A DNA stretch of 64,000 nt, taken from NCBI GenBank assembly GCA_009729775.1, contig GCA_009729775.1_4081.1; one strand, written 5' to 3'. The notes under the pieces were generated by a model. The model saw nothing but the letters and a program-made list of their open reading frames with translations. It was not told the DNA's origin and did no database searches. The stretch comes from Escherichia coli. GTDB lineage: Bacteria > Pseudomonadota > Gammaproteobacteria > Enterobacterales > Enterobacteriaceae. The translations under genes were made by a program, and so were the position numbers. Shown in pieces: positions 8,717-26,762 of the stretch; within the stretch, counting starts at the first letter, position 1; every line of letters starts with the position of its first letter.

Positions 8717-9118
8717 TTATAGTCCTAAGATAGTGCGTGCTTCGTTACGTTCCGTCCATAGCTGCATGATGTGAGCAAGTAAGTCCTTACTAATGTATCC
8801 GGTGTTCATAGCTTCACGGATAGATACATCATAAGCACCGAACCCCGTGCGAACGATACGCACATCATTTAGGTTAGTGTTATAGATACCGCCAAGATCA
8901 ACGGCTTCGAATACTGCATCAACTGAATACTCATTGTTACCATCGTTGAAGTTTTCTAGTGCAATAGTATTGGATACCGCCCAACGTTTGCAGTTTCCAA
9001 TGATGCGGCATTGTTCCGGTTGGAGAGTGCCATTACTTACAGCGTACTCCAGTGCATCTTTACCAAAAGTCCGAGCCAGTACTAAAACGTCAGCGAAGGA
9101 AGTGATTGAGAAGGTCAT
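8717..9118 (-). CDS. hypothetical early protein (133 aa)
   Basis: Start adjusted to MTFSITSF... with AAGGAG RBS; upstream part of the track ORF is the hairpin leader. Confidence 0.65.
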   Translation of the reverse strand: MTFSITSFADVLVLARTFGKDALEYAVSNGTLQPEQCRIIGNCKRWAVSNTIALENFNDGNNEYSVDAVFEAVDLGGIYNTNLNDVRIVRTGFGAYDVSIREAMNTGYISKDLLAHIMQLWTERNEARTILGL

Positions 9119-9172
9119 GATAAAACTCCTTAATTTAGGAGGGAGAACCATTTCCCCCTCTCTATGTAAAAC

Positions 9173-9200
9173 ATTATACTTGATTCTAAGTACTATGCAA
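9173..9200 (-). promoter_or_regulatory. sigma70-type early promoter (minus strand)
   Basis: Minus strand reads TTGCAT-N16-TATAAT, followed by leader hairpin and the gene at 9118. Confidence 0.55.
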
Positions 9201-9207
9201 GTACTTT

Positions 9208-9534
9208 TTACATTTTAATACCTGGATTCAGGTAGCGGTGAGATCCGTATTCTGGATCTGTTTCGGTCCAGTACTGTAAATCTATAGTACCCTTTGCGTT
9301 AATCTTGTCTACTAGCTTATTCATCTTAGTGTAGACTACTTCGCTAGGGATGTAGTGTAATCCTTTATTATAGAAGTAGTGGTTAGCTTCACTATCGTTT
9401 AAGATATAGCGTGCACCGTTTGCGGTTTGTGCAACAATGAAAGAGTATTCTACTTCCCGATCATTACCATCAACAGTAATGCGGTCGAAATTGGTACGGA
9501 TGAAAGCTTTAACGATAGCGATTGAAGTACTCAT
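9208..9534 (-). CDS. hypothetical early protein (108 aa)
   Basis: TAGGAGA RBS upstream of ATG. Confidence 0.65.
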   Translation of the reverse strand: MSTSIAIVKAFIRTNFDRITVDGNDREVEYSFIVAQTANGARYILNDSEANHYFYNKGLHYIPSEVVYTKMNKLVDKINAKGTIDLQYWTETDPEYGSHRYLNPGIKM

Positions 9535-9684
9535 GGTGAATCTCCTAACTTTGTGGGCCGTCGCACCATTGCCGCCCTACGAGATACATTATTGCAGTAC
9601 TGATATACTTTGTCAATACTTTTTTTGAAATAGTTTTGAGTACTGGAATTACATCCACCAGCAGATAGTTACTCACCGTTATGA

Positions 9685-9712
9685 ACTATCTTACAGATAC
9701 TTCTCTGCACCC
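9685..9712 (+). repeat. conserved 28-bp intergenic motif AGATAC...TGCACCCTGTGGGCTAG (copy 1)
   Basis: Read directly; same core in at least 8 intergenic sites. Confidence 0.7.
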
Positions 9713-9739
9713 TGTGGGCTAGTTTTTGTCTATGCGTAT

Positions 9740-9779
9740 ATAATAGCAAAGGGACTGACCGGAGTCAATCCCTTTTTTT
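9740..9779. terminator. stem-loop cassette GGGACTGACCGGAGTCAATCCC with flanking T-run; TTGACT box inside the stem
   Basis: Hairpin 9751-9772, T7 run on plus side; on minus strand TTGACT-N17-TATTAT promoter geometry. Confidence 0.55.
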
Positions 9780-9790
9780 ATTCTTTTTTG

Positions 9791-9991
9791 TTAGATGATT
9801 CTCCAATCTTCTACCAGGATTTTAATATACCGTACCAGTGATTCGAGTGATTCCACTTCCCGATAATCGGTAGCCGTTTGCACGGAACAAGTACAGCCGA
9901 TCAAGCCATTGCCAAGCTCTTTGATCTGTACATCGATGCAGTTGGCTTTTGCTTCATTCAGTACTGCAACCAATTCGTTAGCGATTGACAT
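9791..9991 (-). CDS. hypothetical early protein (66 aa)
   Basis: AGGAG RBS; ORF track. Confidence 0.6.
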   Translation of the reverse strand: MSIANELVAVLNEAKANCIDVQIKELGNGLIGCTCSVQTATDYREVESLESLVRYIKILVEDWRII

Positions 9992-10079
9992 AATGTTTTA
10001 CTCCTAAAGGTGCGGGAGAACTATTCCCCCGCTCTATGTAAAACATTATACATTATCTTGTAGTACTGTCAAATAGTTT

Positions 10080-10337
10080 TTATGAGATATCTTCGATATA
10101 GTCGGCCCATGTCATTTGTTCAGTACTATCGAGTGCACCAGGATTATTTGGATCAAACCATTCGCCATCCCCTAAGTACATTGCAGCGGATACCGCTTTA
10201 TAGCCATTATAGGCGTTATTCCACTGCATAGCACGATAGATATGGCCTTTAATTGGTGTTAGTACTGGTAACGTTTTATGGTCTTCTACGTAGGCTGTAG
10301 CGATTGGATTTACCCGATACGTTTTGAACTGTTCCAT
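10080..10337 (-). CDS. hypothetical early protein (85 aa)
   Basis: AAGGGGA RBS; ORF track. Confidence 0.6.
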   Translation of the reverse strand: MEQFKTYRVNPIATAYVEDHKTLPVLTPIKGHIYRAMQWNNAYNGYKAVSAAMYLGDGEWFDPNNPGALDSTEQMTWADYIEDIS

Positions 10338-10411
10338 GATGTTTCCCCTTTAGTTAGTAAAGTTAATACAACAGTACTATCACGCATTGTCAATAGTACT
10401 GAAATAAAACT

Positions 10412-10636
10412 TTAGATTAGATTATTGATGCCGTTGATGGTAGACTCGCTTTCTTCTTTCTCCCATTGGCGGTAATACTTCCATGCTTCATGATAGGTGG
10501 CGATCAGTTCATCTTTTTGATCCTGAGTACATGCCAGTACTGAATCACTGTAAGCGGTGTTATAGATAGAATCAAATGATTTCTTCTCTTCTGCCAGGGT
10601 AGCTACTTCCCGCATCAGTTCATCAAAGTTAGCCAT
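10412..10636 (-). CDS. hypothetical early protein (74 aa)
   Basis: Start adjusted to MANFDELM...; track ORF N-terminus is leader. Confidence 0.6.
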   Translation of the reverse strand: MANFDELMREVATLAEEKKSFDSIYNTAYSDSVLACTQDQKDELIATYHEAWKYYRQWEKEESESTINGINNLI

Positions 10637-10719
10637 TTTAGTACTCCTTATTAGTGGGGGAGGATATCTCCCCCTATGCAAAACATTATACTTTGTTTTA
10701 CTTACAATGCAAGTACTTT

Positions 10720-10911
10720 TTAAATTTTATTTCCGATATAGTCCGGCCTGTTCTTTTCGGTCATACGCTTAAGCATTTTTTGCATATGGCTTATTGCTTG
10801 TAGTGTATCCTCTTCCAGCGATGAATCAAGATAATCAGGATCATTCTTCACCTTACAATGATTATGATAGCGTAGTACTGCCAGTACTTTTTTAACTTCT
10901 TCAACTGTCAT
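10720..10911 (-). CDS. hypothetical early protein (63 aa)
   Basis: ATGA start-stop overlap with upstream gene (translational coupling). Confidence 0.55.
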   Translation of the reverse strand: MTVEEVKKVLAVLRYHNHCKVKNDPDYLDSSLEEDTLQAISHMQKMLKRMTEKNRPDYIGNKI

Positions 10912-11180
10912 AATAAGTATTCCACTTCGTTTGCTTTCAGGTTAGTATCAATCATCAGTGGCTTTTTGTAGTCCACAAAACGATTAGTTTTTTCGATAGC
11001 GAAGCCCATATAATCCAGCTTGCTTACCGTGCATTCATTCTTAAAAACTTCTTTCGCTGCATTGATGGCTGATTGCAATGTTAACCGACCATCTAAGTTA
11101 ATGTTTCCAAATGATCCACCAGCAGAAGTAGGATTACCGTTCATATCTTTAATGATCATAGTTGCGGAGTAGCTAGACAT
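10908..11180 (-). CDS. hypothetical early protein (90 aa)
   Basis: AAAGGA RBS; ORF track. Confidence 0.6.
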   Translation of the reverse strand: MSSYSATMIIKDMNGNPTSAGGSFGNINLDGRLTLQSAINAAKEVFKNECTVSKLDYMGFAIEKTNRFVDYKKPLMIDTNLKANEVEYLL

Positions 11181-11233
11181 AATTTTGTTTCCTTTTAGTA
11201 TCGGGGAGAACTATTCTCCCCTTGATGTAAACT

Positions 11234-11261
11234 ATTATACAGTACTGATATACTTTGTCAA
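11234..11261 (-). promoter_or_regulatory. sigma70-type early promoter (minus strand)
   Basis: Minus strand reads TTGACA-N16-TATAAT with CAGTACTG abutting the -10. Confidence 0.6.
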
Positions 11262-11264
11262 TAC

Positions 11265-11486
11265 TTAATTACGTTTAAAATGATATGTACCTTTATCATC
11301 CTGTACGCCCCATACTGATTTACCATCAACGCCAGTGAAGCCGGATTGCAATTCAATATGGAAACCATTATTATCAACTACAAAAACTTTTTTATTTTCA
11401 TCCCGATAACATTGATATTCTGAATCAACATTAAAGGCCGCATCATTCAGAAGATTGGAAGCGTAAATGCAAGTCATTGTAGTCAT
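11265..11486 (-). CDS. hypothetical early protein (73 aa)
   Basis: Start adjusted to MTTMTCIY... Confidence 0.6.
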   Translation of the reverse strand: MTTMTCIYASNLLNDAAFNVDSEYQCYRDENKKVFVVDNNGFHIELQSGFTGVDGKSVWGVQDDKGTYHFKRN

Positions 11487-11612
11487 GATTTTATTCCTTA
11501 TTCTTTGAGGGAGAACCATTTCCCCCTCTCGATATAAAACATTATACTTGATTCTAAGTACAATGCAAGTACTTTTTTAAAAATAGTTTTCAGTACTGAA
11601 TACTTATATAAT

Positions 11613-11640
11613 AGATACACTTCCGCACCCTATGGGTCAG
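11613..11640 (+). repeat. conserved 28-bp intergenic motif (copy 2)
   Basis: AGATACACTTCCGCACCCTATGGGTCAG. Confidence 0.7.
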
Positions 11641-11673
11641 TGAGTTATCTCTCAATGAATATATAATAGCAAA

Positions 11674-11701
11674 GGGACTGACTGGAGTCAATCCCTTTTT
11701 T
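11674..11701. terminator. stem-loop cassette GGGACTGACTGGAGTCAATCCC plus T-run
   Basis: Same cassette as 9740-9779. Confidence 0.55.
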
Positions 11702-11709
11702 AATCTTTT

Positions 11710-12294
11710 TTATCGTGTTATAGTTATCGCGTTAACATCACGTTTTTTATAGTACTGATTCCAGATATTGCGGGTTAAACCGTAATCAAGTACTTTAATC
11801 AAGCCGTTGCGATCCTGGCCGATATTCTGTTTTCTGATATCTCTTATCGTTAGTGTGGATAATGTATCATCAACGTGATTGAGAGCATCAGCGAAATGGT
11901 GATGGCGTTCAATAGTGTTACGTTTAATATTGTACTTTAACTCATTACATGCGGTTACGTGCTTTACACTGCCTTTGCTTGCAGTACTCAAACGATCCAT
12001 AACAATAAACAGATTATCAGGATCGCATAAATGCATATGCACCTTGGCAAAGAACTGTTTAAGGTGCGGACGGTCATAATCTAAAAAATTCCATACCTTA
12101 CATTCAGTTTCATTTTGTTCTACACCCGCATCACAATTCGCGACCTTAATCACTAACCGATCATTTAAAGCGAATACAATACGGGAAGAACCCGCACCGA
12201 CGATCTCCAGTCCAGCTAACCGACAAGCTGAAAGGATCTCTTTGTTGGTTTCCATTGCATGAAGTGAACGGATGAATTTAGTATAGTTACGCAT
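11710..12294 (-). CDS. putative protein-kinase-like protein (about 194 aa)
   Basis: Start adjusted to MRNYTKF... with AAGGAG RBS; GAGSSRIVF glycine-loop-like, VIKV lysine, DIRKQNIG catalytic-loop-like and LDYG (DFG-like) motifs. Confidence 0.4.
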   Translation of the reverse strand: MRNYTKFIRSLHAMETNKEILSACRLAGLEIVGAGSSRIVFALNDRLVIKVANCDAGVEQNETECKVWNFLDYDRPHLKQFFAKVHMHLCDPDNLFIVMDRLSTASKGSVKHVTACNELKYNIKRNTIERHHHFADALNHVDDTLSTLTIRDIRKQNIGQDRNGLIKVLDYGLTRNIWNQYYKKRDVNAITITR

Positions 12295-12325
12295 TGTGTT
12301 GACTCCTTGAGTTAATGAAACTATA

Positions 12326-12568
12326 TTACAGTACTTTACTATCAATGGCAACTACTTTTTTTACTTGAACTGCGTGGAATACTTCACGCGTATTTTTAGT
12401 ACTGAATACTTTTGCCGTACCTTGTTCGACCGCAATACGATAGCGACCGTTAACGTCCACCATGTTGATAAAGTCCGGTGTACTGAATGGAGTTACCCGG
12501 CATTTAAGAACGGTTAACAGTTCCACCAGCGTGGTAGTCTCTTTGATACGTTTTTCTAAAGTAATCAT
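12326..12568 (-). CDS. hypothetical early protein (80 aa)
   Basis: Start adjusted to MITLEKR...; TTGACA-N17-TACTAT promoter just upstream. Confidence 0.55.
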   Translation of the reverse strand: MITLEKRIKETTTLVELLTVLKCRVTPFSTPDFINMVDVNGRYRIAVEQGTAKVFSTKNTREVFHAVQVKKVVAIDSKVL

Positions 12569-12625
12569 TTTGTTTTCCCCGTGTTGGTATGCATTCATAG
12601 TACTAAAACATTTGAGTACTGTCAA

Positions 12626-12844
12626 TTAGATAATAGAATATTTCTTTAGTGATAATGCGTCTTCTGTCGGTTGATATTCTACACCGTTCCCGTTATCAAC
12701 CTTAGTGAGTAAACCTTTATCAATGAGTTTTTTGATGGTACGGTTTCCCTGTTGAAAACTAGTGAAGTGTGAATCATTACGAAAGGTATAACCGTGCTTC
12801 ACTGCTTCATCAATAGTTTTCTTTTCGATTTTAGATAATTTCAT
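12626..12844 (-). CDS. hypothetical early protein (72 aa)
   Basis: ORF track; purine-rich RBS. Confidence 0.55.
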   Translation of the reverse strand: MKLSKIEKKTIDEAVKHGYTFRNDSHFTSFQQGNRTIKKLIDKGLLTKVDNGNGVEYQPTEDALSLKKYSII

Positions 12845-12902
12845 TTTGTTTCTCTCTCTCTGTGTTGGTATAGATACATAATACTAAAACATTTGAGTAC
12901 TG

Positions 12903-13157
12903 TCAACGTGATATTAGTTTTATTTTTTTATTGTATTGTTGGTGTTCATATAGATTAATTTTTCCAGTACTCTCGATCACTATTCTATTGTTAGTGTCTA
13001 CATCGATAACACGTAGTTTCCCGTTGCTTAACTTCCTAGGCAATAGACTACCATTAATAAACTCATTAGCAAGCTGTACGGCCTTTGTGATGATTCTCTG
13101 TGGTGCTTTATAGTGTACCCGCAAGATATTATCTTTAGATAGTTGTACCTTCATCAT
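12903..13157 (-). CDS. hypothetical early protein (84 aa)
   Basis: AGGATA RBS. Confidence 0.55.
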   Translation of the reverse strand: MMKVQLSKDNILRVHYKAPQRIITKAVQLANEFINGSLLPRKLSNGKLRVIDVDTNNRIVIESTGKINLYEHQQYNKKIKLISR

Positions 13158-13172
13158 TTTAGTTTATCCTAT

Positions 13173-13197
13173 AAAAAAGGCGGGAACTGAACCCGCC
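13173..13197 (-). terminator. rho-independent terminator
   Basis: GGCGGGTTCAGTTCCCGCC hairpin followed by U-run on the minus strand, just after the stop of 13221-13616. Confidence 0.7.
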
Positions 13198-13220
13198 GTG
13201 TTGTTAGTACTGCAAAGTTA

Positions 13221-13616: not shown

Positions 13617-13715
13617 GGTGTACATCCTATTAGTTAAGTTAATTAGTACTACAAGTTAGAGTCTATTATAAAGTACTATCTGGGTAATGTCAAATAGTAC
13701 TTTAAATGGATTCTA

Positions 13716-14039
13716 TTACATGTCTTTCTTACGTTTTACATCGTAGTAACGAACTGTAATTTCTTTGTTGATCTCTTCCTCAATTCTGTGTAGTACTTTC
13801 TCTTTCGGGTTGAAACCTATTACAGTTTCTTTAATGATCTCCAAGCCCGTGTATTCGCCTTGTGTACCGTAACCGTAAGTAAAGGTTTCATGTCCCAGGT
13901 CTTCCCAGCGGTCACCAATCAATGCAGACACGTAGCATGAGTGGTAAGTATTGCCGTGGCTATCAGTCCACCGATTAACTTTAATGTCAAAGGAAGTTAC
14001 AATTTTCATTTCTACTTTCTGGGTAAGGATCATAGCCAT
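13716..14039 (-). CDS. hypothetical protein (107 aa), paralog of 20340-20684
   Basis: Shared GNTY, YGYG and C-terminal VKRKKD motifs. Confidence 0.65.
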   Translation of the reverse strand: MAMILTQKVEMKIVTSFDIKVNRWTDSHGNTYHSCYVSALIGDRWEDLGHETFTYGYGTQGEYTGLEIIKETVIGFNPKEKVLHRIEEEINKEITVRYYDVKRKKDM

Positions 14040-14095
14040 TTTAATTTCTCTCTTTTAGTTAGGAGGGGAACCATTCCCCTGCCTTGATGTAAACT

Positions 14096-14123
14096 ATTAT
14101 ACAGTACTAAGATACTTTGTCAA
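14096..14123 (-). promoter_or_regulatory. sigma70-type early promoter (minus strand)
   Basis: TTGACA-N16-TATAAT on minus strand. Confidence 0.6.
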
Positions 14124-14126
14124 TAC

Positions 14127-15496: not shown

Positions 15497-15709
15497 TTAA
15501 TCTTTCAGCCAATGATCTTGAATGAATTTTTCACAGAATCCCTGTTTCATAGATTCTAACAGGCGTTCACGGTGAGCGGCGGCATATTGCTCAGTACTAT
15601 GCGTTACGCCAGGTTGATAACGTGAAACACCGTCTGGTCCGATATATTGAACATCCCACGGTTTTTCGTTAGTATCAGACCATTTACGAACGATTAGTTG
15701 ACCTTGCAT
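15497..15709 (-). CDS. hypothetical early protein (70 aa)
   Basis: AGAGGA RBS; ORF track. Confidence 0.6.
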   Translation of the reverse strand: MQGQLIVRKWSDTNEKPWDVQYIGPDGVSRYQPGVTHSTEQYAAAHRERLLESMKQGFCEKFIQDHWLKD

Positions 15710-15792
15710 GTTTCTTTCCTCTTAGTGGGGAGAATCATTTCTCCCCTTCATGTAACTTATTATACAGTACTAGATTACATTGTCAATAGTTT

Positions 15793-16143: not shown

Positions 16144-16332
16144 TTACAGTTTATGAATCAATTCTTTATCCAAGCGATAGCGAACATTATTGATTGTAAC
16201 TGCATTGTTTTTAATGCTACGCTGTACAGGTCCACCAGCAATAACAAACGTTGCCTTATTGCCCCGAACGATGATAGCACTTCCAGGATTACCGAAATCA
16301 TCTTGTACTAAAATGCTTGATAAGTTTTGCAT
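16144..16332 (-). CDS. hypothetical early protein (62 aa)
   Basis: AAGGAAAG RBS; ORF track. Confidence 0.55.
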   Translation of the reverse strand: MQNLSSILVQDDFGNPGSAIIVRGNKATFVIAGGPVQRSIKNNAVTINNVRYRLDKELIHKL

Positions 16333-16411
16333 TTGTCTTTCCTTGTAGTGGGGAGAACTATTCTCCCCTTCATGTAAACAATTATACAGTACTGAAAACT
16401 AATTGCAAGTA

Positions 16412-18237: not shown

Positions 18238-18450
18238 TTAGTTAATGATAGTCAGTGTAAAATTGTAATCCCCTGCCTGGTATAGTACTTTATCGCCGAA
18301 CGTGCCAACACGTTTCATATTGCAATAGATACCCATAACATTTTTTACATCTTTGATATTCCGAACGCCAGTGATATCCTTGTTGAAATTTTCATGATCA
18401 GAAAATAAAACTTGTTTTGCATTTTTCAGTACAGTGCAGATATTAGCCAT
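18238..18450 (-). CDS. hypothetical early protein (70 aa)
   Basis: AGAGAG RBS; ORF track. Confidence 0.6.
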   Translation of the reverse strand: MANICTVLKNAKQVLFSDHENFNKDITGVRNIKDVKNVMGIYCNMKRVGTFGDKVLYQAGDYNFTLTIIN

Positions 18451-18550
18451 TTCGATTTCTCTCTGTTAGTAGGGAAGTACTGTTACTTCCCGTGCCTTGA
18501 TGTAAACTATTATACAGTACTATAATCTATTGTCAAACTATTTTTTAATA

Positions 18551-18892
18551 TTATTCAAAATCTTCTGGACCGGACTGATAATCATCCTCACCGTATGCAC
18601 TTTCTAACTTCTCGCCAGTGTAATCATCAGTTAGTGAGTCATCCTCATAGTTCACGTCTACGCCCGTGATGTAAAACTGGCTATCGTCTGGATCATTGAA
18701 ATTAATTTTCTGAATGTTTACAATAACTGTATTGATACCCAGGACACAGCCATCAGCCGTTACAAAGTACTGATATTTTTCACATCCACCACTATTGAAA
18801 CCGTAATTGATTTCGGCCCGACCATCATTTAAACGCAGTGCCTGAGCGATGATTTCGTTTTCAAAGTTAGATTGAGCAATTGCAATAGTCAT
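18551..18892 (-). CDS. hypothetical acidic protein (113 aa)
   Basis: AAGGAAA RBS; acidic C-terminus. Confidence 0.6.
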   Translation of the reverse strand: MTIAIAQSNFENEIIAQALRLNDGRAEINYGFNSGGCEKYQYFVTADGCVLGINTVIVNIQKINFNDPDDSQFYITGVDVNYEDDSLTDDYTGEKLESAYGEDDYQSGPEDFE

Positions 18893-19025
18893 GATTCGTT
18901 TCCTTATTACCAGGGGAAACCGTTTCCCCTTGCGATGTAAAACATTATACGCCTATTGATATAGTTTGCAAGTACTTTTTATCAAATACTTTAAAATAGT
19001 TTTCAGTACTCAATCATTATACAAT

Positions 19026-19342: not shown

Positions 19343-19491
19343 TTTTTAGCCTGAAAGTAATGTTTAATTTGTGCGGCGGTCAGTGCACAATTACGCAGGA
19401 AGTTTTCTGTATAACTTTTACGAGTACTGAAAGAGTACTGACCTTTCCCGTTACCGATAGTAACATCAAACCGAGCGTTATATTGTTTCAT
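19339..19491 (-). CDS. hypothetical early protein (50 aa)
   Basis: Start adjusted to MKQYNARFDV... Confidence 0.5.
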   Translation of the reverse strand: MKQYNARFDVTIGNGKGQYSFSTRKSYTENFLRNCALTAAQIKHYFQAKK

Positions 19492-19559
19492 TTTGTTTCT
19501 CCTAGTATCGGGGAGAACCATTCCCCCCCTCTATGTAAACAATTATACAGTACTGAAAA

Positions 19560-19880
19560 CTAATTGCAAGTACTTTCTAAGTAATGTTTATAAGCTGAAT
19601 CAACCACTCTTTCGATAACATACGCTAACGGCACGTATCCAACTACATGACTACAATAAAAAGGACTACGATTAGAATCATCGTATGCAAATACTTTTTC
19701 AGGATCTGCATCAATCACATACATATTAACCTTTAAGATGTCTATCTTATCCTGTACAGTAAGCATATTACGCCGCCTTATCAGTACTGGCAACCGGACG
19801 GATACGGGCCATTTCATGGGCTTGTTCCACACTGTAACGCTCATAAAGGCGGCATTCTTCCGGTGTAGGAACAGCATCAA
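19560..19880 (-). CDS. hypothetical protein (up to 106 aa; start uncertain)
   Basis: Track ORF begins at a TTG; internal ATG at 19766 has a GGCGG-type RBS. Confidence 0.45.
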   Translation of the reverse strand: MMLFLHRKNAAFMSVTVWNKPMKWPVSVRLPVLIRRRNMLTVQDKIDILKVNMYVIDADPEKVFAYDDSNRSPFYCSHVVGYVPLAYVIERVVDSAYKHYLESTCN

Positions 19881-21065: not shown

Positions 21066-21203
21066 ACTTTTTGCTTTCTTTATTGCTTCCACCTGGTCGG
21101 CCCACTCTTTACCCCATACTTGAGCGTTATAGTGATACTGACAAAGAGCAACGCCCCGTTTCAAACCAGTGATAGATTTTTTACCACATTGACAAGTTTT
21201 CAT
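21060..21203 (-). CDS. small Cys-rich protein (47 aa), not in ORF track
   Basis: Hand translation MKTCQCGKKSITGLKRGVALCQYHYNAQVWGKEWADQVEAIKKAKSK; AAGAGGAAA RBS; possible Zn-binding C-x-C...C-x-Y-H. Confidence 0.45.
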   Translation of the reverse strand: MKTCQCGKKSITGLKRGVALCQYHYNAQVWGKEWADQVEAIKKAKSK

Positions 21204-21288
21204 TTTTAGTTTCCTCTTAGTGGGGAGAATCATTTCTCCCCTTGATGTAATGTATTATACTTTATCCGATTTACTTTGCAAGTACTTT

Positions 21289-21960: not shown

Positions 21961-21993
21961 AAAAACAAAAAAGCCCACTGCTTATAGTGGGCT
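21961..21993 (-). terminator. rho-independent terminator
   Basis: AGCCCACT-loop-AGTGGGCT hairpin with long U-run on the minus strand, after the stop of 22015-22497. Confidence 0.7.
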
Positions 21994-22014
21994 AGTGATT
22001 CAGTACTTTAAATG

Positions 22015-22497: not shown

Positions 22498-22684
22498 TTT
22501 ATAAATCCTCAATTAAAGTTTAAGTTAGTTTATCAAAGTTTGTTTGACGTGTCCAGTTTTTCATTCGACTTACTGGCGGTCTACTTAATGTTCCCCGTCT
22601 TGATGTAATACATTCTACGCTTTTCCCTGGTAATGTCAACTACTTTTTTAAAACTATTTTCAAAGTATACCAGTACTACGATAA

Positions 22685-22720
22685 TACAAAAACAAAAAAG
22701 CCCACTGTTTAAGGTGGGCT
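22685..22720 (-). terminator. rho-independent terminator
   Basis: AGCCCAC-loop-GTGGGCT hairpin plus U-run on minus strand after 22738-23037. Confidence 0.7.
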
Positions 22721-22737
22721 AGTGATTCAGTACTAGA

Positions 22738-23037
22738 TTATAAACAGTTAATTACTCCGGTGTGCGTTACTTTCTCAGTATCCATCACAGTGACCGAACC
22801 GCGTTTAGTACTGGCATCATAATAAATTGTTGTGCTACCGTTTTTGTCTTCTTCATGGAACGGGCCGTTTTTAAATGCTTCCGGCTGGATCTCTAAATCC
22901 TTTAATACAATCTCGCCAGTTCTTTCATCGGTCATTGCAACAGTGCACTGAATGAATTTTTCACTACTTACATCTAATGACGCATTAACAGCGAAAGAGG
23001 AAACAGATAAAGCCAGGGCGATGATTGCAATTTTCAT
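22738..23037 (-). CDS. secreted small protein with signal peptide (99 aa)
   Basis: N-terminus MKIAIIALALSVSSFAVNAS; AAGGATA RBS. Confidence 0.6.
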   Translation of the reverse strand: MKIAIIALALSVSSFAVNASLDVSSEKFIQCTVAMTDERTGEIVLKDLEIQPEAFKNGPFHEEDKNGSTTIYYDASTKRGSVTVMDTEKVTHTGVINCL

Positions 23038-23121
23038 TTGATTATCCTTAGTTACCAGGGGGAACCGCTCCCCCTTGCTATGTAAAATATTATACAGTAC
23101 TAAAAACTAATTGCAAGTACT

Positions 23122-23358
23122 TTATGATTTTTTATAAAACATTTCGGCAGTGATATTTTTACCCGTTGGCTGTACTTTATCCAGAATTTTTTGATGCCCT
23201 GGCCGTCCAAATGAATATGATCCGTAAACCGTAAACCAGTAGTTACCCTCAGTGTTTACATGTACAGCACAATAGGGAACGCCCCGCGATTCATCACTAG
23301 TAAAGTGTGCTACCGTTCCCGTTACATTCGAAGTCGTTGATTTGATTTGTTCAAGCAT
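23122..23358 (-). CDS. hypothetical protein (78 aa)
   Basis: AAGGAATA RBS; ORF track. Confidence 0.6.
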   Translation of the reverse strand: MLEQIKSTTSNVTGTVAHFTSDESRGVPYCAVHVNTEGNYWFTVYGSYSFGRPGHQKILDKVQPTGKNITAEMFYKKS

Positions 23359-23466
23359 TTTCTTATTCCTTAGTTACCAGGGGAACCGCTCCCCTATGCA
23401 AAACATTATACGCGTTTAAAAACTATTGTCTAGTATTTTAATAAAAAGTATTTGAAAAATAGTTGT

Positions 23467-23495
23467 TGACAAGTGCATCCAGTACTGGCATAATA
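23467..23495 (+). promoter_or_regulatory. plus-strand sigma70-type promoter driving a short non-coding transcript
   Basis: TTGACA-N17-CATAAT on the plus strand; no plus-strand ORF follows. Confidence 0.45.
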
Positions 23496-23519
23496 CTTAC
23501 ATAAAGACGAGATAGTCAC

Positions 23520-23548
23520 TAACCCACAGGGTGCATAGATCCGTCTAT
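23520..23548 (-). repeat. conserved 28-bp intergenic motif (copy 6, inverted orientation)
   Basis: Plus strand reads CTAACCCACAGGGTGCATAGATCCGTCTA, reverse complement of the core. Confidence 0.65.
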
Positions 23549-23565
23549 TAAATGATTCAGTACTG

Positions 23566-23593
23566 CAAAATAAAGGGGATCAATTGATCCCCT
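23566..23593 (-). terminator. rho-independent terminator
   Basis: Perfect palindrome GGGGATCAATTGATCCCC followed by U-run on minus strand after 23599-23820. Confidence 0.7.
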
Positions 23594-23598
23594 CTGTA

Positions 23599-23820
23599 TT
23601 ACTTAGTAAGGTATAAACAGAAGTCACCTTTATTTGCTACGCCGCCAGTGTAACGCGATGAATAGTTAGAAACGTCCTGGACTTCTGCTATTACCAGTGT
23701 ATCATCATTCAATTCGTCGCAGAAGCAAACGGCTGGATCTTTTACGCCGATATTGTCGGCATGTTCCCGCATAGATTTAACCAGTGCTTCAAGTTGGGAA
23801 AGAGTAGTGATATTAGCCAT
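23599..23820 (-). CDS. hypothetical protein (73 aa)
   Basis: Start adjusted to MANITTLSQ...; GAGGAAAA RBS. Confidence 0.6.
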   Translation of the reverse strand: MANITTLSQLEALVKSMREHADNIGVKDPAVCFCDELNDDTLVIAEVQDVSNYSSRYTGGVANKGDFCLYLTK

Positions 23821-23907
23821 TTTATTTTCCTCATTACCAGGGAGAACCATTTTCTCCCCTCTATGTAAACCATTATACAGTACTAAAAACTAATTGCAAG
23901 TACTTTT

Positions 23908-24111
23908 TTAATTTAATTGCTTTAAAACATACTCAAAGACACCACGCACATCATTGATCATCGCCTGGCGGTTAGCAGGTAACGCATCAGGATCGCCACT
24001 ATCCCAGGCATTGATAAAACTCCCCAAATCATGATAGATTTTATTCTGTAAGCCGATCAACTGCAATTCTTTTTCTTCAAGCTCTTTGATACGTTCAATT
24101 AAATCACTCAT
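23908..24111 (-). CDS. hypothetical protein (67 aa)
   Basis: Start adjusted to MSDLIERIKELEEK...; AAGGA RBS. Confidence 0.55.
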   Translation of the reverse strand: MSDLIERIKELEEKELQLIGLQNKIYHDLGSFINAWDSGDPDALPANRQAMINDVRGVFEYVLKQLN

Positions 24112-24128
24112 TATATAATCCTTAGTAC

Positions 24129-24410
24129 TTAATTGTAAGATCCGCAACGGTCGCAGTAGTGCCCCTCGTCATCGTCAACGAATTGACCAACGAAATTATC
24201 TACTTTCGCTTTCAGGTTATTATAATCGTTTTCTACTTCCTTTAAACGCTTCTGGTAGTATTCCAGTGCTTTAAGATATGCCGCATCAGTAGTTTTCTCC
24301 TGCATAGCTAAATTCATGCCACGCGTTTCATCATAAAGCCAATAACCATCAGTACATTGGCTAATAGACAATGACTTGCTTAACACTGTATAGTTAATTA
24401 CTTTGCTCAT
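24129..24410 (-). CDS. hypothetical protein (93 aa)
   Basis: Start adjusted to MSKVINYTVL... Confidence 0.55.
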   Translation of the reverse strand: MSKVINYTVLSKSLSISQCTDGYWLYDETRGMNLAMQEKTTDAAYLKALEYYQKRLKEVENDYNNLKAKVDNFVGQFVDDDEGHYCDRCGSYN

Positions 24411-24500
24411 TAGATAACCCTCAGTAAAGGCGGGAACCACTCCCCGCCTCGATATAAAGTATTATACGCTTTTAAACTTAGTATGCAAGTACTTTTTAAA

Positions 24501-25112
24501 TTAATATGCGATAGATTCTACTACATCGTCGATAACGTTAAATTGATATTCGTTACCCTCAATCAGTCCTACAATGTTTTCAGTAGTAAACTGGTCTTCA
24601 TAAGCATTTTCTAAATCACGGTACAGCTTACAAGATAATTCTCGGATAGTATCAGTCAGTAAGTTTTCCAGATCCTCAGCTAATGCAGCCTGTTTTACAG
24701 TTAAATCAGTGTAGCGAGTATCAACGCAACCGCCTACCGTGTTTTCGTGAGCGTAGCGTGATTGGGAACGTTCTACACTCATTTCCAAATCATCTTCGTT
24801 CAACAGGTGACGGATGGAACGATATTTCGTTAACGCCTTAACCTTGCGTAAAAACTTCTCAGCGTCAACGTGGTCAGTACTGATTGATGCACCGTCACCT
24901 TGCGACCAAAAACCACTGTATTGCAATTCAGCTTCATCTATGCCGTATTCTGGCAGTACTGTTTCTTTATAGTATTCCAGTACTGATTCAGCAAAGAAAT
25001 TATCCTCACTTGCACGTTCCCGATCCCGAACCAGTTCGATAGCCGCCGCTTGTTGTTCTGCGTTCAGTTCAGAAAAATCCATAACGAAAGTAGTAGTAGT
25101 GATAGTTTTCAT
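24501..25112 (-). CDS. hypothetical acidic protein (203 aa)
   Basis: GAGGG RBS; ORF track. Confidence 0.65.
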   Translation of the reverse strand: MKTITTTTFVMDFSELNAEQQAAAIELVRDRERASEDNFFAESVLEYYKETVLPEYGIDEAELQYSGFWSQGDGASISTDHVDAEKFLRKVKALTKYRSIRHLLNEDDLEMSVERSQSRYAHENTVGGCVDTRYTDLTVKQAALAEDLENLLTDTIRELSCKLYRDLENAYEDQFTTENIVGLIEGNEYQFNVIDDVVESIAY

Positions 25113-25180
25113 TTTGTAACCCTCATTCAGTAGTTGATGTAAGTATTATACGCTTTTAAAAACAATTGTCAAACTATTTT

Positions 25181-25256
25181 ATCAGGGGAGTTTTTCGTGT
25201 GCCTTACTCCTGGGCTACTTAACGGGAAGTTACTTATTTCGTTCCCCGTCCTGATG
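25181..25256 (-). promoter_or_regulatory. two-hairpin leader element between tandem promoters (copy 2)
   Basis: Near-identical to 14596-14668. Confidence 0.5.
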
Positions 25257-25325
25257 TAAAACATTATACGCCTTTAAACATAGTTTGCAAGTACTTTTTG
25301 AAAATAGTTTTTATCTCTTTCATAT

Positions 25326-25353
25326 AGATACATTCCCGCACCCTATGGGCTAT
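25326..25353 (+). repeat. conserved 28-bp intergenic motif (copy 7)
   Basis: AGATACATTCCCGCACCCTATGGGCTAT. Confidence 0.65.
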
Positions 25354-25411
25354 CGCCTTGTGTCCGGCTTGTAAGTATTATCTCACTAAGCCGGATAACG
25401 GTCAAGTACTT

Positions 25412-25678
25412 TTATTCAAGTACTGCAATCTTTTTAGTACTGTATACAGTAACGCGGTTGCCCTTTCGGTCGTGCTTTATTTCTACCACTCGACGCGATA
25501 CACTATCAGGACTTTTTAAAACCGATCTCCAGTACTGAATTGATCGGGCTGTACTTTGCTTTACTACGGCCCAACGTTTACCACGTTCAGAATGTACGCC
25601 CATATCTTTAAACGTCGCCCCGTCCTGGCGTGCGGCAATCCGAGCAAGTTCACGCGTTGCAAAGTATATAATATTCAT
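25412..25678 (-). CDS. hypothetical protein (88 aa), paralog of 13221-13616
   Basis: Start adjusted to MNIIYFATRELARI...; shared IKHDRKGNRVTVYS block. Confidence 0.6.
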   Translation of the reverse strand: MNIIYFATRELARIAARQDGATFKDMGVHSERGKRWAVVKQSTARSIQYWRSVLKSPDSVSRRVVEIKHDRKGNRVTVYSTKKIAVLE

Positions 25679-25760
25679 GCTGTTACCCCTATCGTTGTTG
25701 TATAAAAGAAATCTATTATAAAGTACTATCACCGTGCAATAGTACTTTTAATCTATTCTC

Positions 25761-26000
25761 TTACATTCCAACCATCGCCGCACGGATCGCAGTAGTGCTA
25801 TACTTAAAGCCGTCCGGTGTTTTATCTTGTCCAGTCTGTTCTAAAAATAGCATCATATGACGGGCCGCATCATTACGATTAGTGTTAGCGGCAATAAAGT
25901 CCTGGGCCAACCGGTATAATGATTCGTCGTTATTAATCCAAAGGCTTACATTCCATTGAGTTTTGTTTTTGTGACCTAAGAACATTTTTGATTTAGCCAT
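25761..26000 (-). CDS. hypothetical protein (79 aa)
   Basis: Start adjusted to MAKSKMFLGHKN...; AGAGGA RBS. Confidence 0.55.
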   Translation of the reverse strand: MAKSKMFLGHKNKTQWNVSLWINNDESLYRLAQDFIAANTNRNDAARHMMLFLEQTGQDKTPDGFKYSTTAIRAAMVGM

Positions 26001-26093
26001 TTTTTTAATCCTCTTATATAGTGGGGAACTATTCCCCACCTGATGTAAAACATTATACGCTTTTAAACTTAGTTTGCAAGTACTTTATTAAAC

Positions 26094-26456
26094 TTATTCG
26101 TAAATCTTTCCACTATCAGCCCATACCAGGAAACGAGGCATATTATCCCATGCATCTTGTTTTAAATTTAAACCGTGTAATACTTCTGTACTTTCCATTC
26201 CTGGTACTGGTTTACTATACACCGCGAACATTTCGCCCATGTACTGATAAGCCATCGTTAAATCACTGGCGATCATCTTATGAATCATCGCATCAAGCAT
26301 CACGGTAGCGGCGTATTGTTCACGCTTAAGCGGTAACATTGCAATAAGTTCCCGATAAGCTGAAATGTGAATTTTTACCGTTTCAGCCGGAAGATCTTTC
26401 ATCTCTTCACGGAAGTTAACCAGGTTAGCAATAATTTTAGTGATTTGAGTAGCCAT
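26094..26456 (-). CDS. hypothetical protein (120 aa)
   Basis: Start adjusted to MATQITKIIANLV...; AGAGAG RBS. Confidence 0.6.
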   Translation of the reverse strand: MATQITKIIANLVNFREEMKDLPAETVKIHISAYRELIAMLPLKREQYAATVMLDAMIHKMIASDLTMAYQYMGEMFAVYSKPVPGMESTEVLHGLNLKQDAWDNMPRFLVWADSGKIYE

Positions 26457-26762
26457 CGTTTTAATCTCTCTTAAAGTGTAGCGGGAAGTGTTCCCGCTCT
26501 CGATGTAAAACATTATACGCCTATCGGGATAGTATGCAAGTACTTTCTACTAATACTTTTAAAATAGTTTTCTTTCTATATAGGAGTACTATCATTCAGT
26601 ACTGAATCAACCAAATCACTACTATACCCCATAAAACGGCCTCAGCCGCTTTCTAACGCATTAATACACCTAAGCTATACATTTGCACCGCCACCAGCTA
26701 ACCAGGGCTTTATAGGCCGTTTAAGGGCGTTAAATTATTTTCAATTATTTTGTTTTTAGCTA

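Follow-up and report, generated by a model that had tools for sequence, protein, structure and literature searches.

The window, the whole stretch of 64,000 nucleotides that was analyzed, belongs to a jumbo coliphage of the 121Q/PBECO4 type (Asteriusvirus). A common layout was found before 18 minus-strand genes at 9.1-26.5 kb and before one gene at 50.5 kb. It starts with an AT-rich region and a consensus sigma-70 promoter whose spacer measures 16 nt, and continues with the sequence 'TTTACATnnn', a hairpin, an A-rich spacer of about 10 nt, a Shine-Dalgarno (SD) sequence and the ATG (Table 1). The member at 50532..50609 falls outside the interval of an earlier, sequence-only reading of this DNA.

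Table 1. Promoter-hairpin cassettes of the window, all on the minus strand; hairpins are written as 5' arm-loop-3' arm.
Cassette	Promoter	Hairpin position	Hairpin	ATG	Remarks
26454..26539	TTGCAT (26539)-N16-TATAAT	26480-26498	AGCGGGAA-CAC-TTCCCGCT	26456	SD present; leader MFE -16.9, z -3.9
25998..26079	TTGCAA-N16-TATAAT	26020-26040	GGTGGGGAA-TAG-TTCCCCACT	26000	
24408..24488	TTGCAT-N16-TATAAT	24427-24450	GAGGCGGGGA-GTGG-TTCCCGCCTT	24410	2 G·U pairs
23818..23899	TTGCAA-N16-TATAAT	23839-23859	GGGGAGAA-AATGG-TTCTCCCT	23820	
23356..23432	TAGACA-N16-TATAAT	23378-23396	GGGGAGCGGTTCCCC core	23358	
23035..23116	TTGCAA-N16-TATAAT	23057-23075	AGGGGGA-GCGGT-TCCCCCT	23037	
21201..21281	TTGCAA-N16-TATAAT	21222-21241	GGGGAGAA-ATGA-TTCTCCCC	21203	
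19489..19569	TTGCAA-N16-TATAAT	19510-19529	GGGGGGGA-ATGG-TTCTCCCC	19491	G·U pairs
18890..18971	TTGCAA-N16-TATAAT	18912-18930	AGGGGAAA-CGG-TTTCCCCT	18892	
18448..18536	TTGACA-N16-TATAAT	18472-18491	GGGAAGTA-ACAG-TACTTCCC	18450	
16330..16408	TTGCAA-N16-TATAAT	16350-16368	GGGGAGAA-TAG-TTCTCCCC	16332	z -2.9
15707..15786	TTGACA-N16-TATAAT	15727-15746	GGGGAGAA-ATGA-TTCTCCCC	15709	
14037..14123	TTGACA-N16-TATAAT	14061-14084	AGGcAGGGGAA-TGG-TTCCCCTCCT	14039	
11484..11568	TTGCAT-N16-TATAAT	11507-11528	GAGGGGGAA-ATGG-TTCTCCCTC	11486	1 G·U pair
11178..11261	TTGACA-N16-TATAAT	11203-11221	GGGGAGAA-TAG-TTCTCCCC	11180	
10634..10712	TTGCAT-N16-TATAAT	10656-10674	GGGGGAG-ATATC-CTCCCCC	10636	
9989..10072	TTGACA-N16-TATAAT	10012-10032	GCGGGGGAA-TAG-TTCTCCCGC	9991	1 G·U pair
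9532..9616	TTGACA-N17-AATAAT	9555-9577	GGGCGGCAATGGTGCGACGGCCC	9534	degenerate member, bulged hairpin
9116..9200	TTGCAT-N16-TATAAT	9139-9160	GAGGGGGAA-ATGG-TTCTCCCTC	9118	
50532..50609	TTGACA-N16-TATAAT	50552-50572	GGGGATGA-ACTTC-TCATCCCT	50534	outlying member

The sequence-only reading had described a promoter and leader hairpin repeated on the minus strand, and this repeat proved to be real and far above chance: the 19-mer given there, allowing up to 3 mismatches, occurs at 7 loci, with 9 strand matches, where 0.01 were expected. A structure-based scan identified 18 minus-strand promoter-to-hairpin leaders at 9136-26498 and one at 50552-50572. Hairpins follow 19/113 sense versus 1/44 antisense promoter-like sites in the window (the single plus-strand case was judged spurious), 17/72 versus 0/38 in 121Q, 20/71 versus 0/39 in UE-S1, 26/63 versus 0/37 in EC22.5-2 and 17/62 versus 1/33 in TH47. 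All 12 perfect (12/12) TTGACA-N16/17-TATAAT sites of the block lie on the minus strand. The reading had also placed the hairpin upstream of most minus-strand genes. However, the block comprises about 50 genes, and its strong promoter-like sites number about 44, so that the hairpin precedes only about 35% of the genes and about 50% of the gene-driving promoters. Promoters without a hairpin are found, for example, at 25172, 21578, 21040, 20746, 18218 and 17939, and further ones at 16825, 14587, 14319, 13693 and 12906. Early expression thus does not depend on the hairpin, which about half of the equally strong promoters of the block lack. A spacer of 16-17 nt had been proposed; 16 nt were found in every hairpin-bearing promoter.

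In 118 leaders from 9 loci, the first base of the hairpin lies 10-14 nt (mode 12) past the -10 hexamer. Stems measure 6-10 bp and the hairpin is separated from the ATG by 17-24 nt in these leaders, its 3' end lying 7-12 nt upstream of the SD. Assuming a CA start dinucleotide 7-8 nt past the -10, the transcript would contain the entire hairpin, preceded by 3-6 nt, and the first base of the hairpin would fall at approximately +4 to +7 of a leader of about 45 nt. Since it lies downstream of the predicted start, the hairpin would be transcribed into the leader of the gene it precedes, and the approximately 20 nt between hairpin and ATG leave no room for an alternative promoter. The earlier placement of the hairpin at or near the mRNA 5' end is thus supported. 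In 17 of the 18 window leaders, the minimum free energy structure consists of the hairpin and leaves SD and AUG unpaired. Taken individually, the folding z-scores are modest, ranging from -0.6 to -3.9. Common descent of the cassettes, instead of selection, may account for the fixed distances. As had been suspected, the 'MVLP' open reading frames are artefacts that start at an ATG within the hairpin loop (e.g., 8717..9151, starting from the loop ATG at 9151 in cassette 9116..9200). This ATG is in frame with the true start codon in 5-6 cases, and the GenBank annotation of 121Q gene 317 begins at it.

Instead of the single hairpin form that had been claimed, a family of differing stem sequences was found, with a G-rich 5' arm and a C-rich 3' arm (among others GGGGAGAA/TTCTCCCC, AGCGGGAA/TTCCCGCT, GGTGGGGAA/TTCCCCACT, GGGGGAG/CTCCCCC and GGGAAGTA/TACTTCCC). 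Stems vary freely and loops measure 3-6 nt. The closing pair is A-U in 88/94 and the second pair A-U in 72/94 hairpins, and 64/94 have a U[AG]G or AUG[AG] loop; these preferences hold across lineages with unrelated stems. The initial transcribed sequence ACAUCAA is conserved among the cassettes, and GATGTAAA corresponds to the conserved initial transcribed sequence TTTACATC read on the plus strand. Orthologous leaders in relatives, found through coding-sequence homology only, kept a hairpin in 67 of 74 cases, compared with 3.3% of random 42-nt windows. The hairpin sequence differs in 39 of these 67, and the loop in 29 of the 39; changes of the loop are no rarer than those of the stem. The gene starting at 26000 shares 92.7% identity with its counterpart in Phapecoctavirus ESCO13, which has a different hairpin upstream, and the gene starting at 18450 has three other hairpin sequences before its orthologs, four in total. 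The bulged hairpin at 9555-9577 may be compared with GGGCGGCAATGGTGCCGCTC in ESCO13 and with GGGCGGCAATAGTGCAGCCC in the 121Q ortholog. Some orthologs without a promoter still keep the hairpin at the same distance from the SD. In an alignment made of sequences picked for forming hairpins, double (compensatory) changes were observed at 7 of 8 stem pairs, in 44 cells versus 9.9±2.6 in shuffles. Single non-Watson-Crick stem positions were G·U on the sense strand in 11 cases (only about 6 independent events) and of the A·C type in 1, a bias that points to RNA. Judged from these comparisons, it is the structure and not the sequence of the hairpin that is maintained, and the compensatory changes together with the G·U bias support an action at the RNA level.

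Relative to the -10 hexamers, homology blocks shared with 121Q and EC22.5-2 start 28-64 nt upstream and stop 9-66 nt downstream. Many paralogous cassettes cross-match over 60-100 bp, and gene indels are found at cassette borders. Genes together with their cassettes are shared with Stephanstirmvirinae and Vequintavirinae at 80-92% nucleotide identity, and the same layout is present in Klebsiella phage RaK2 (with unrelated stems), Stephanstirmvirinae and Vequintavirus. According to these alignments, the cassettes are exchanged between genes, related phages and unrelated coliphage lineages, and the motif is a real, conserved and shuffled regulatory cassette. A few family-like hairpins without a recognizable promoter also lie between genes (L001 4584, L125 33341, L123 3682); a strictly 5'-terminal role therefore does not fit those.

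No new kind of system is involved: the cassette represents a variant of the "promoter plus stem-loop" modules already described in T4-like phages. These PeSLs (promoter-early stem-loops) occur in RB49/phi1, PST/T4 and nt-1/KVP40 (Arbiol et al., 2010, PMC2839356; Comeau et al., 2014, PMC4122927). They are likewise repeated cassettes of about 100 bp that are concentrated among small ORFan early genes; each combines an AT-rich region and a strong sigma-70-like early promoter with a stem-loop (G-tract, loop, C-tract), an SD and a start codon. In both, the cassettes are conserved while flanking genes differ, and indels occur at the cassettes. The window also contains an element of classic PeSL geometry (AAAGGG-TTGACT...CCCTTT, stem over the -35), whose sequence matches T4-like Klebsiella, Vibrio and Aeromonas phages. 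However, PeSL stem-loops precede the promoter hexamers, separate them, overlap them or stand 'just before' the start, whereas the stem-loop of the window cassettes is always found 10-14 nt downstream of the -10, inside the 5' leader of its own gene; it lacks a U-rich tail, and no termination is predicted for it. The window cassettes also differ in occurring in non-T4 lineages (Rak2-like jumbo phages, Stephanstirmvirinae, Vequintavirinae). The shuffling and horizontal sharing of these PeSL-kind cassettes, the restriction of the hairpin to about half of the promoters and the wide occurrence of the element in other phage lineages are points absent from the sequence-only reading.

Stem-loops at the 5' end stabilize the ompA and T7 gene 10 mRNAs (PMC2254391; reviewed in PMC3997798). 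Similarly, the T7 gene 10 (phi10) leader opens with a stem-loop of 8 bp that has a purine-rich and a pyrimidine-rich arm; an A/U-rich spacer and a strong SD come next. Its stem-loop, GGGAGACC-ACAAC-GGTTTCCC, is comparable to GGGGAAA-CGG-TTTCCCC of the window and, placed behind a promoter of E. coli, raised GFP output 4-fold (PMC2254391). In transcripts of T7 RNA polymerase, this hairpin begins at +1, whereas the window hairpins, a multicopy and shuffled family, follow sigma-70 promoters with 3-6 unpaired nucleotides predicted first. The ompA/papA stabilizers of E. coli share a sequence-independent stem-loop near the mRNA 5' end and a well-occupied ribosome-binding site, which protect from 5'-end-dependent RNase E/RppH decay (PMC3997798); they act essentially at the terminus, whereas the predicted position in the window is probably less tight. 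By analogy with these systems, we tentatively favor, at somewhat less than an even chance, a PeSL-like mobile early-gene cassette whose transcribed stem-loop would act as a 5'-proximal protective or insulating structure.

With its G/C-rich stem of 6-10 bp, short loop and intergenic location, the hairpin resembles intrinsic terminators, but it is placed within the leader downstream of the promoter and the 8 nt 3' of it contain 0-3 T in 115 of 118 leaders. As there is no U-tract, an intrinsic terminator was rejected. A terminator scan flagged none of the 18 hairpins while it flagged the real terminators of the block; true terminators of the genome carry TTTTTT tails and look different (e.g., GGCGGG...CCCGCC-TTTTTTAT and AGCCCAC...GTGGGCT-TTTTTGTTTT). 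These results also make it unlikely that the hairpin is a PeSL-type attenuator or 3'-end barrier, which would act mainly on transcripts of the upstream gene, its location in the leader of the downstream gene being incidental, and insulate each small gene by polymerase termination or pausing or by blocking 3'-to-5' exonucleases after processing. In favor of such a barrier, RB49/phi1 PeSL stem-loops (G-tract, loop, C-tract) lowered downstream lacZ like a strong terminator (PMC2839356), and phiKZ 5'-UTR terminators yielding short RNAs are documented (PMC10914365). Moreover, a few family hairpins without a promoter lie directly 3' of a stop codon, and read-through is to be expected because most genes of the block lack their own terminator. 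However, an efficient terminator at the hairpin would silence its own gene, as the hairpin lies downstream of the cassette's start site, and a second cassette type in the genome, with a terminator hairpin overlapping the -35, does the insulating without this effect.

The position of the hairpin relative to SD and ATG, the unpaired SD and AUG in the predicted folds and the hairpin-SD distance kept in promoterless orthologs would also agree with a role in translation, in which the hairpin, as a standby site or insulator, delimits the ribosome-binding region on its 5' side and sets or equalizes initiation rates and not mRNA lifetime. We consider this quite improbable: since leaders of the block that lack the hairpin show the SD context ACATCAA-CTAAGAGGAAAC as well, a ribosome-binding site can do without it, and the idea that the 3' arm pairs alternatively with the SD is not supported, given two C·A mismatches in the sense RNA.

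Sequence preferences beyond structure, kept across lineages, and the presence of the hairpin on only a subset of promoters, as a regulon would predict, could indicate a binding or cleavage site for a phage early or host RNA-binding protein that co-regulates the hairpin-bearing early genes, e.g., through a timed shut-off or through processing, comparable to T4 RegA/RegB or boxB-N. Against this very improbable explanation stand the changed loops of the orthologs, the variable loop length and the free stems; no Rfam family matches the hairpin and no candidate binding protein was identified. Least probable is a function of the DNA, in which the palindrome would serve a dimeric repressor as operator (+5 to +25) or form a cruciform or a hot spot of recombination, with the RNA hairpin as a by-product: the palindrome is near-perfect with an AT-rich center favoring extrusion, crossovers were mapped in PeSL stem-loops (PMC2839356) and indel borders lie at cassettes, but half-sites varying with compensatory changes and a center spacing of 3-6 nt are incompatible with a single dimeric DNA-binding protein, the 11 to 1 bias of G·T sense-strand mismatches is meaningless for duplex DNA, and short intergenic regions would host indel borders regardless.

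We return to the stem-loop as a protective or insulating structure. The classic ompA effect requires the hairpin to be within a few nucleotides of the terminus. The 3-6 predicted unpaired 5' nucleotides, together with the report that RNase E while scanning 'can readily bypass' a simple stem-loop (PMC9943677), weaken the idea of a simple stabilizer. The stabilizing, processing or regulatory function suggested by the sequence-only reading is plausible, and by analogy with the T7 gene 10 and ompA leaders the hairpin would probably protect or insulate the mRNA 5' end. In the literature on the phage and its relatives, no transcription start, half-life or reporter data were found. Single-stranded 5' ends are the substrate of RppH and of the RNase E 5' sensor (PMC3997798). 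A hairpin with a ribosome bound about 10 nt downstream would leave little single-stranded leader for RppH/RNase E-dependent decay, and it would keep the ribosome-binding site unpaired in any upstream context, including read-through transcripts from the preceding gene. The outcome would be a uniform, high, short-burst expression of small host-takeover genes, while the conserved 60-100 bp cassette may serve as a recombination substrate by which single genes are shuffled along with the signals for their expression, a mechanism proposed for PeSLs.

Megablast of window positions 9000-17000 and 17000-26600 against phage genomes gave piecewise matches at 89-96% identity to Escherichia phage 121Q, PBECO4-like phages, UE-S1, EC22.5-2 and G17. 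These relatives belong to the genus Asteriusvirus, the 350-kb 'Rak2-like' jumbo myoviruses. The counterpart stretch in 121Q, genes 266-319, consists of small hypothetical genes 60-100 nt apart and is followed by a tightly packed, operon-like run; the homologues in the window lie on the minus strand. The block of early-type genes at 8717-26513 contains ~50 genes and ~44 strong promoter-like sites, part of which drive RNAs without an ORF.

Promoter-like sites were defined as TTGnnn-N16-18-TAnnnT in which the -10 could deviate at one position at most, and a hairpin was accepted after such a site if its stem was at least 6 bp long, reached -8 kcal/mol or lower and started 6-20 nt after the -10. 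On the minus strand, 18 promoter-to-hairpin leaders were found between 9136 and 26498, where small hypothetical genes occupy 17.4 kb, and a nineteenth at 50552-50572; among 44 promoter-like sites of the plus strand, one had an unrelated hairpin match. The 19-mer by which a sequence-only reading had described the hairpin occurs, with up to three mismatches, at 7 loci against 0.01 expected. The recurrent combination of promoter and leader hairpin is real and located on the gene strand. The same reading had placed the hairpin upstream of most genes, which overstates its frequency: set against the gene and promoter counts of the block, about one gene in three has the hairpin upstream, and about half of the promoters that drive genes carry it. 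The block has 12 perfect (12/12) promoters, all of which lie on the gene strand. The promoters have the form TTGACA/TTGCAA-N16-TATAAT with AAAAAGTAC or similar upstream; the spacer is 16 nt in every hairpin-bearing case, and the -10 is usually a TG-extended TATAAT. Between the -10 and the stem lies G/A-TTT(T)ACAT-N2-4, of which the previously noted GATGTAAA is the plus-strand reading. Leaders without a hairpin resemble the same leader minus the hairpin module (ACATCAA-CTAAGAGGAAAC versus ACATCAA-(GGGGAGAAATGATTCTCCCC)-ACTAAGAGGAAAC).

The anatomy of the element was determined from 118 leaders with 62 distinct hairpins in nine loci. The first hairpin base follows the -10 by 10-14 nt (mode 12), stems have 6-10 bp (mode 8), loops mostly 3-4 nt, and the start codon, with its SD, lies 17-24 nt past the 3' end of the stem. 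Purines dominate in the 5' arm and pyrimidines in the 3' arm, with pair counts of 275 G-C, 144 A-U, 33 G·U, 30 C-G and 5 U-A. A conserved 'ACA' 6-8 nt past the -10 would put the preferred C(-1)A(+1) start where it is canonically expected. From the general behaviour of sigma-70 in start-site selection, we take the RNA 5' end to be AUCAA-GGGG..., and if transcription begins, as predicted, at the conserved CA 7-8 nt past the -10, the stem would be preceded by 3-6 unpaired nt. Because its 5' base lies 10-14 nt after the -10, the hairpin is predicted to be beyond the start and thus inside the cassette's own transcript. On geometric grounds it is very unlikely that transcription starts downstream of the hairpin, since the ~20 nt from stem to ATG leave no room for a further promoter. 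When the predicted leaders were folded, the hairpin was the MFE structure in 17/18, with SD and AUG unpaired. The individual z-scores of the 18 leaders are modest (-0.6 to -3.9), and the statistical weight comes from recurrence. An alternative fold sequestering the SD was considered and found no support.

To assess structure retention, orthologs of the 18 hairpin-preceded genes were located in eight other loci via coding-sequence homology alone, which makes this an unbiased test. A hairpin was present in 67 of 74 orthologous leaders, as compared with 3.3% of random 42-nt windows, and 39 of these 67 differ in sequence. The gene with its start at 18450 has four different hairpins across phages (GGGAAGTA.., GGGGAGAA-TAG.., GGGGAGAA-ATGA.. 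and GGGCGGCA..), and the gene at 26456 has the stem AGCGGGAA/TTCCCGCT in the window versus ACGGGGG/CTCCCGT in 121Q. MAFFT and RNAalifold, applied to 19 window leaders, put stems of different length out of register and recovered only 3 pairs; they were replaced by a loop-anchored alignment and an ungapped in-register alignment of 24 distinct hairpins. In the latter, 7 of 8 pairs show changes on both sides (44 cells versus 9.9±2.6 in shuffles), and the signal collapses in slid registers; its figure of 100% pairing is circular, because the sequences had been chosen for pairing. Among hairpins with exactly one internal non-Watson-Crick position, collected without favouring any mismatch type, 11 carry G·T and 1 carries C·A (binomial p = 0.006, from only ~6 independent events). 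Since G·U is tolerated only in the sense-strand RNA and the centre spacing varies from 3 to 6 nt, both observations argue against a purely duplex-DNA role. The hairpin structure is, as judged from these comparisons, selected in the RNA sense.

The 'MVLP' ORFs, suspected of being artefacts in the sequence-only reading, proved to be readings from a loop ATG (GGGGGAA-ATG-GTTCTCCC). In 5-6 cassettes this ATG shares its reading frame with the true start further downstream, and where a loop ATG or GTG is in frame, ORF callers therefore add ~10-11 residues (MVLP...). The GenBank CDS of 121Q gene 317 begins at such a hairpin-loop ATG. The ORF 26094..26513 starts similarly, at an ATG inside the TATA-ATG of a -10.

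The promoter-hairpin-RBS layout was counted 17 times in 121Q, 20 in UE-S1, 26 in EC22.5-2, 17 in TH47 and ~12 in Klebsiella phage RaK2 (Alcyoneusvirus), and it is also present in Phapecoctavirus ESCO13, a Vequintavirus, and Justusliebigvirus PD211 and A145 (typical stem GGCGGGAAATGGTTTCCCGCC). A 96-nt cassette query matched 504 places in 68 phage records, namely Rak2-like phages of Escherichia, Klebsiella, Salmonella, Erwinia, Serratia and Yersinia and some rV5/phAPEC8-like phages. The exact palindrome GGGGAGAA-N3-4-TTCTCCCC was found in at least 120 IMG/VR loci; besides 121Q, another 121Q-type cassette and a 149-kb contig, nearly all of these are ordinary terminators in unrelated viruses, and it is therefore the promoter context, not the bare hairpin sequence, that is diagnostic. 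That contig, the uncultivated IMGVR_UViG_3300030441_000047, has two promoter-hairpin-RBS cassettes with other stems (GGGGAGGGGGAAACACTCTCCCC; AAGGGAGAGATAGGCTCTCCCTT) at 7942-8520, so that phages not yet described also have this layout.

Several of the window's early genes share 80-92% nucleotide identity with genes of Stephanstirmvirinae and Vequintavirinae, where they stand behind that lineage's own hairpin. The partners are myoviruses of 137-150 kb that are unrelated to the jumbo phage (Phapecoctavirus, Justusliebigvirus, Vequintavirus), and some of their records bear the label 'Campylobacter phage'; this similarity indicates that single early genes were recently exchanged horizontally between lineages. 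Collinear blocks between the window and 121Q or EC22.5-2 begin 28-64 nt before -10 hexamers and end 9-66 nt past them, with single-gene insertions or replacements between them, and paralogous cassettes cross-match over 60-100 bp at 84-100% identity. Both findings fit cassette-mediated shuffling, for which they are weak evidence because the intergenic regions are almost entirely cassettes.

The closest described system is the promoter-early stem-loop cassette (PeSL) of T4-like phages, in which strong early promoters with a G-tract/C-tract stem-loop are repeated among ORFans; the roles proposed for PeSLs are transcriptional insulation and modular shuffling, the latter including mini-circles excised by recombination between cassettes (PMC2839356, PMC4122927). 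Both cassettes have a strong sigma-70-like early promoter with an AT-rich region upstream, an adjacent G-tract/loop/C-tract stem-loop, and SD and start codon at the 3' end. Both are repeated in a plastic, ORFan-rich region, where indels and replacements between relatives are bounded by cassettes (the intergenic regions being almost all cassette). However, the PeSL stem-loop lies upstream of, within or over the promoter, with five subclasses of which the fifth is 'downstream of -10 just before the start' (PMC2839356), and is placed to act on upstream transcripts, for which it serves as a terminator or attenuator. The leader hairpin, in contrast, lies downstream of the predicted start, is transcribed into the gene's own leader and has no terminator features. 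Classic PeSL geometry is found in the same window in a composite element, AAAGGGATTGACTCCGGTCAGTCCCTTT-GCTATTATAT, which was flagged by the terminator scan; its stem contains the -35 and its T-tract the -10 (AAAGGG-TTGACT-TCGG-TCAG(C/T)CCTTT-(T)GCTAT(T/A)AT). Cassettes of the type AAAGGGTTGACT...CCCTTT-TTGCTATAAT fill the 45-60 kb block. The composite sequence matches 295 records, which include T4-like phages of Klebsiella, Vibrio (KVP40 group) and Aeromonas besides many other phages, in accord with the 'A3-4G3-loop-C3T3-4' consensus reported for nt-1.

As an RNA element, the leader hairpin is most like the 5' stem-loop of the T7 gene 10 leader (GGGAGACC-ACAAC-GGTTTCCC), which stabilises mRNA and, placed behind an E. 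coli promoter, raised GFP output fourfold (PMC2254391); the 5' hairpins of ompA and papA are also similar (review PMC3997798). The effect of stabilisers of the ompA and T7 gene 10 type depends on structure and not on sequence, and structure is also what the leader hairpins keep. Such stabilisers lie at or within a few nt of the primary 5' end and prolong mRNA half-life through a dependence on RNase E/RppH; in the leaders, 3-6 unpaired nt are predicted before the stem. In the literature on Asteriusvirus, 121Q/PBECO4/RaK2, rV5 and fEgEco12 we found neither leader hairpins nor mapped start sites. The leader hairpin is genuine and widespread, and apparently undescribed for these phage groups in the searchable literature; it is a PeSL-like cassette with a 5' leader hairpin, a variation on a known kind and not a new mechanism class.

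Other repeated elements of the window are listed in the table. The hexamer AGTACT occurs 260 times versus 21.6 expected, a 12-fold excess (next palindromic hexamer 2.0-fold), with the extended consensus T-rich-C-AGTACT-G-A-rich and a density of 3.0 per kb inside genes, in all three reading frames, and 8.0 per kb between genes. CCATGG, CAGCTG, AGGCCT and AGCGCT are absent from the window (6.4 expected). The AGTACT excess is 14x in 121Q, 13x in UE-S1 and 20x in RaK2, and is absent from Stephanstirmvirinae (0.1-0.4x) and Vequintavirus (1.1x); it looks like a lineage-specific DNA-level signal, on which we found no paper. At 32510-42300, bidirectional terminator-like hairpins built on this motif (GCCAGTACT-NN-AGTACTGGC), with T-tails on both strands, separate genes. 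Driven by a promoter but lacking an ORF, an element of ~60-80 nt built around the core CCCAYAGGGTGC-N-AANTGTATCT, often ending in a TTCAGTACTGAA hairpin, is present in eight copies on both strands against 0.11 expected and is a candidate small-RNA gene family. By megablast, the early-gene region still matches Klebsiella phages in only two short stretches, 17349-17430, a copy of this element (RaK2 and Muenster), and 25338-25416 (fENko-Kae01). Some early promoters have no gene behind them but a structured RNA of ~75 nt (ACAUCAGGACGGGGAAC...CCCAGGAGUAAG...CUCCCCUGAU), with the next promoter immediately after it; the leader-hairpin cassette may have given rise to these as small RNAs. Neither Rfam 15 at the gathering threshold nor a tRNA/tmRNA search gave a match anywhere in the window, the eight-copy element included.

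Coordinates of cassette-associated and other repeated features (window positions unless stated)
Feature	Coordinates	Strand	Remarks
ORF starts at loop ATG (or GTG)	9151, 11519, 19521, 21233, 23850, 24440	minus	also 19775 in L001, another locus
Early genes shared with other lineages	25762-26065, 20341-20636, other pieces of 17000-26600		80-92% nucleotide identity
Composite terminator/promoter cassettes	15030-15057, 11671-11698, 9748-9775, 19084-19111	minus	
Composite cassettes, further sites	45990, 47772, 49056, 53756, 54838, 56446, 56631, 59873		
AGTACT, example sites	9598-9603, 16389-16394		of 260 in the whole window
ORF-less ~60-80 nt element	9707-9718, 11625-11636, 14989-15000, 17348-17359, 19038-19049, 25338-25349	minus	
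ORF-less ~60-80 nt element	23523-23534, 27034-27045	plus	
Structured ~75-nt RNA	25180-25258, 14595-14671	minus	paralogs fold alike; z-scores -1.7 and -3.0
Structured ~75-nt RNA, diverged third copy	22520-22607		

Taken together, the comparisons establish a hairpin that is, by its predicted geometry, transcribed, selected for structure, non-terminating and fixed in place within a mobile early-gene cassette. As to its role, we tentatively favour, at a little less than an even chance, that it protects the 5' region of the mRNA and keeps the RBS independent of its context, while the cassette doubles as a recombination substrate. With the hairpin in place and a ribosome bound ~10 nt downstream, little single-stranded leader would be left, so that the 5' region would be protected; the hairpin would keep the RBS context-independent, and the conserved cassette would also serve in recombination. 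Against a simple stabiliser speak the 3-6 unpaired 5' nt predicted, the half of the promoters that manage without a hairpin and a few family hairpins without a promoter. RNase E is moreover reported to bypass simple stem-loops while scanning (PMC9943677), for which reason an obstacle to such scanning was rejected.

An attenuator, or a 3' barrier acting on upstream transcripts, is an unlikely alternative. A U-rich tract directly after the hairpin, as required of an intrinsic terminator, is absent in the 118 leaders, with 1-2 T in the first 8 bases past the stem. The terminator scan flagged 0/18 leader hairpins and did flag genuine terminators of the block at 13197, 21993 and 22720. By these sequence criteria, the leader hairpin is not a terminator. 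The 'terminator' annotations of UE-S1 in the homologous region are U-tract elements and not leader hairpins. A terminator for the opposite strand was rejected, as the tail TTGATGTAAA has only 4 T in 8, below the threshold, and plus-strand genes are absent.

That the hairpin acts as a translational insulator is less probable still, and we give slightly less credence to a site for a specific factor. A specific ligand was suggested by an apex that recurs as URG closed by A-U: of 94 distinct leaders, 88 have A-U as the closing pair and 72 as the next pair, 64 have U[AG]G or AUG[AG] loops, and the apex is also found on RaK2 stems, for example GGGGATACA-TAG-TGTATCCCT. However, the loop differs in 29 of the 39 changed ortholog hairpins, and because loops change at least as often as stems, loop-specific recognition was given low weight. 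Similarly improbable is a post-transcriptional regulon, in which a phage or host RNA-binding protein or nuclease would recognise the conserved G-rich stem base and the A-U-closed U-R-G apex and subject that half of the early transcripts which bears the hairpin to joint stabilisation, silencing or processing; cassette and regulator would have spread together through coliphage lineages that are not related (Rak2-like jumbo phages, Stephanstirmvirinae, Vequintavirinae). Least probable is a DNA-level role, given the 11 to 1 G·T bias in the sense strand and the variable centre spacing.

A 5' leader hairpin is a familiar class of mechanism and opens no long-standing question. Its recognition corrects start-codon calls, as public annotations (e.g., 121Q gene 317) start some genes inside the loop, and the ~60 distinct compact modules of strong promoter, 5' hairpin and RBS are a natural library for expression design. 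The cassette is also a simple sequence signature for immediate-early genes in poorly annotated 350-kb genomes. If the proposed role is correct, the PeSL idea of single genes travelling with a portable promoter and stem-loop would reach past T4-like phages to jumbo and rV5/phAPEC8-like coliphages, and would gain a variant whose stem-loop belongs to the mRNA.
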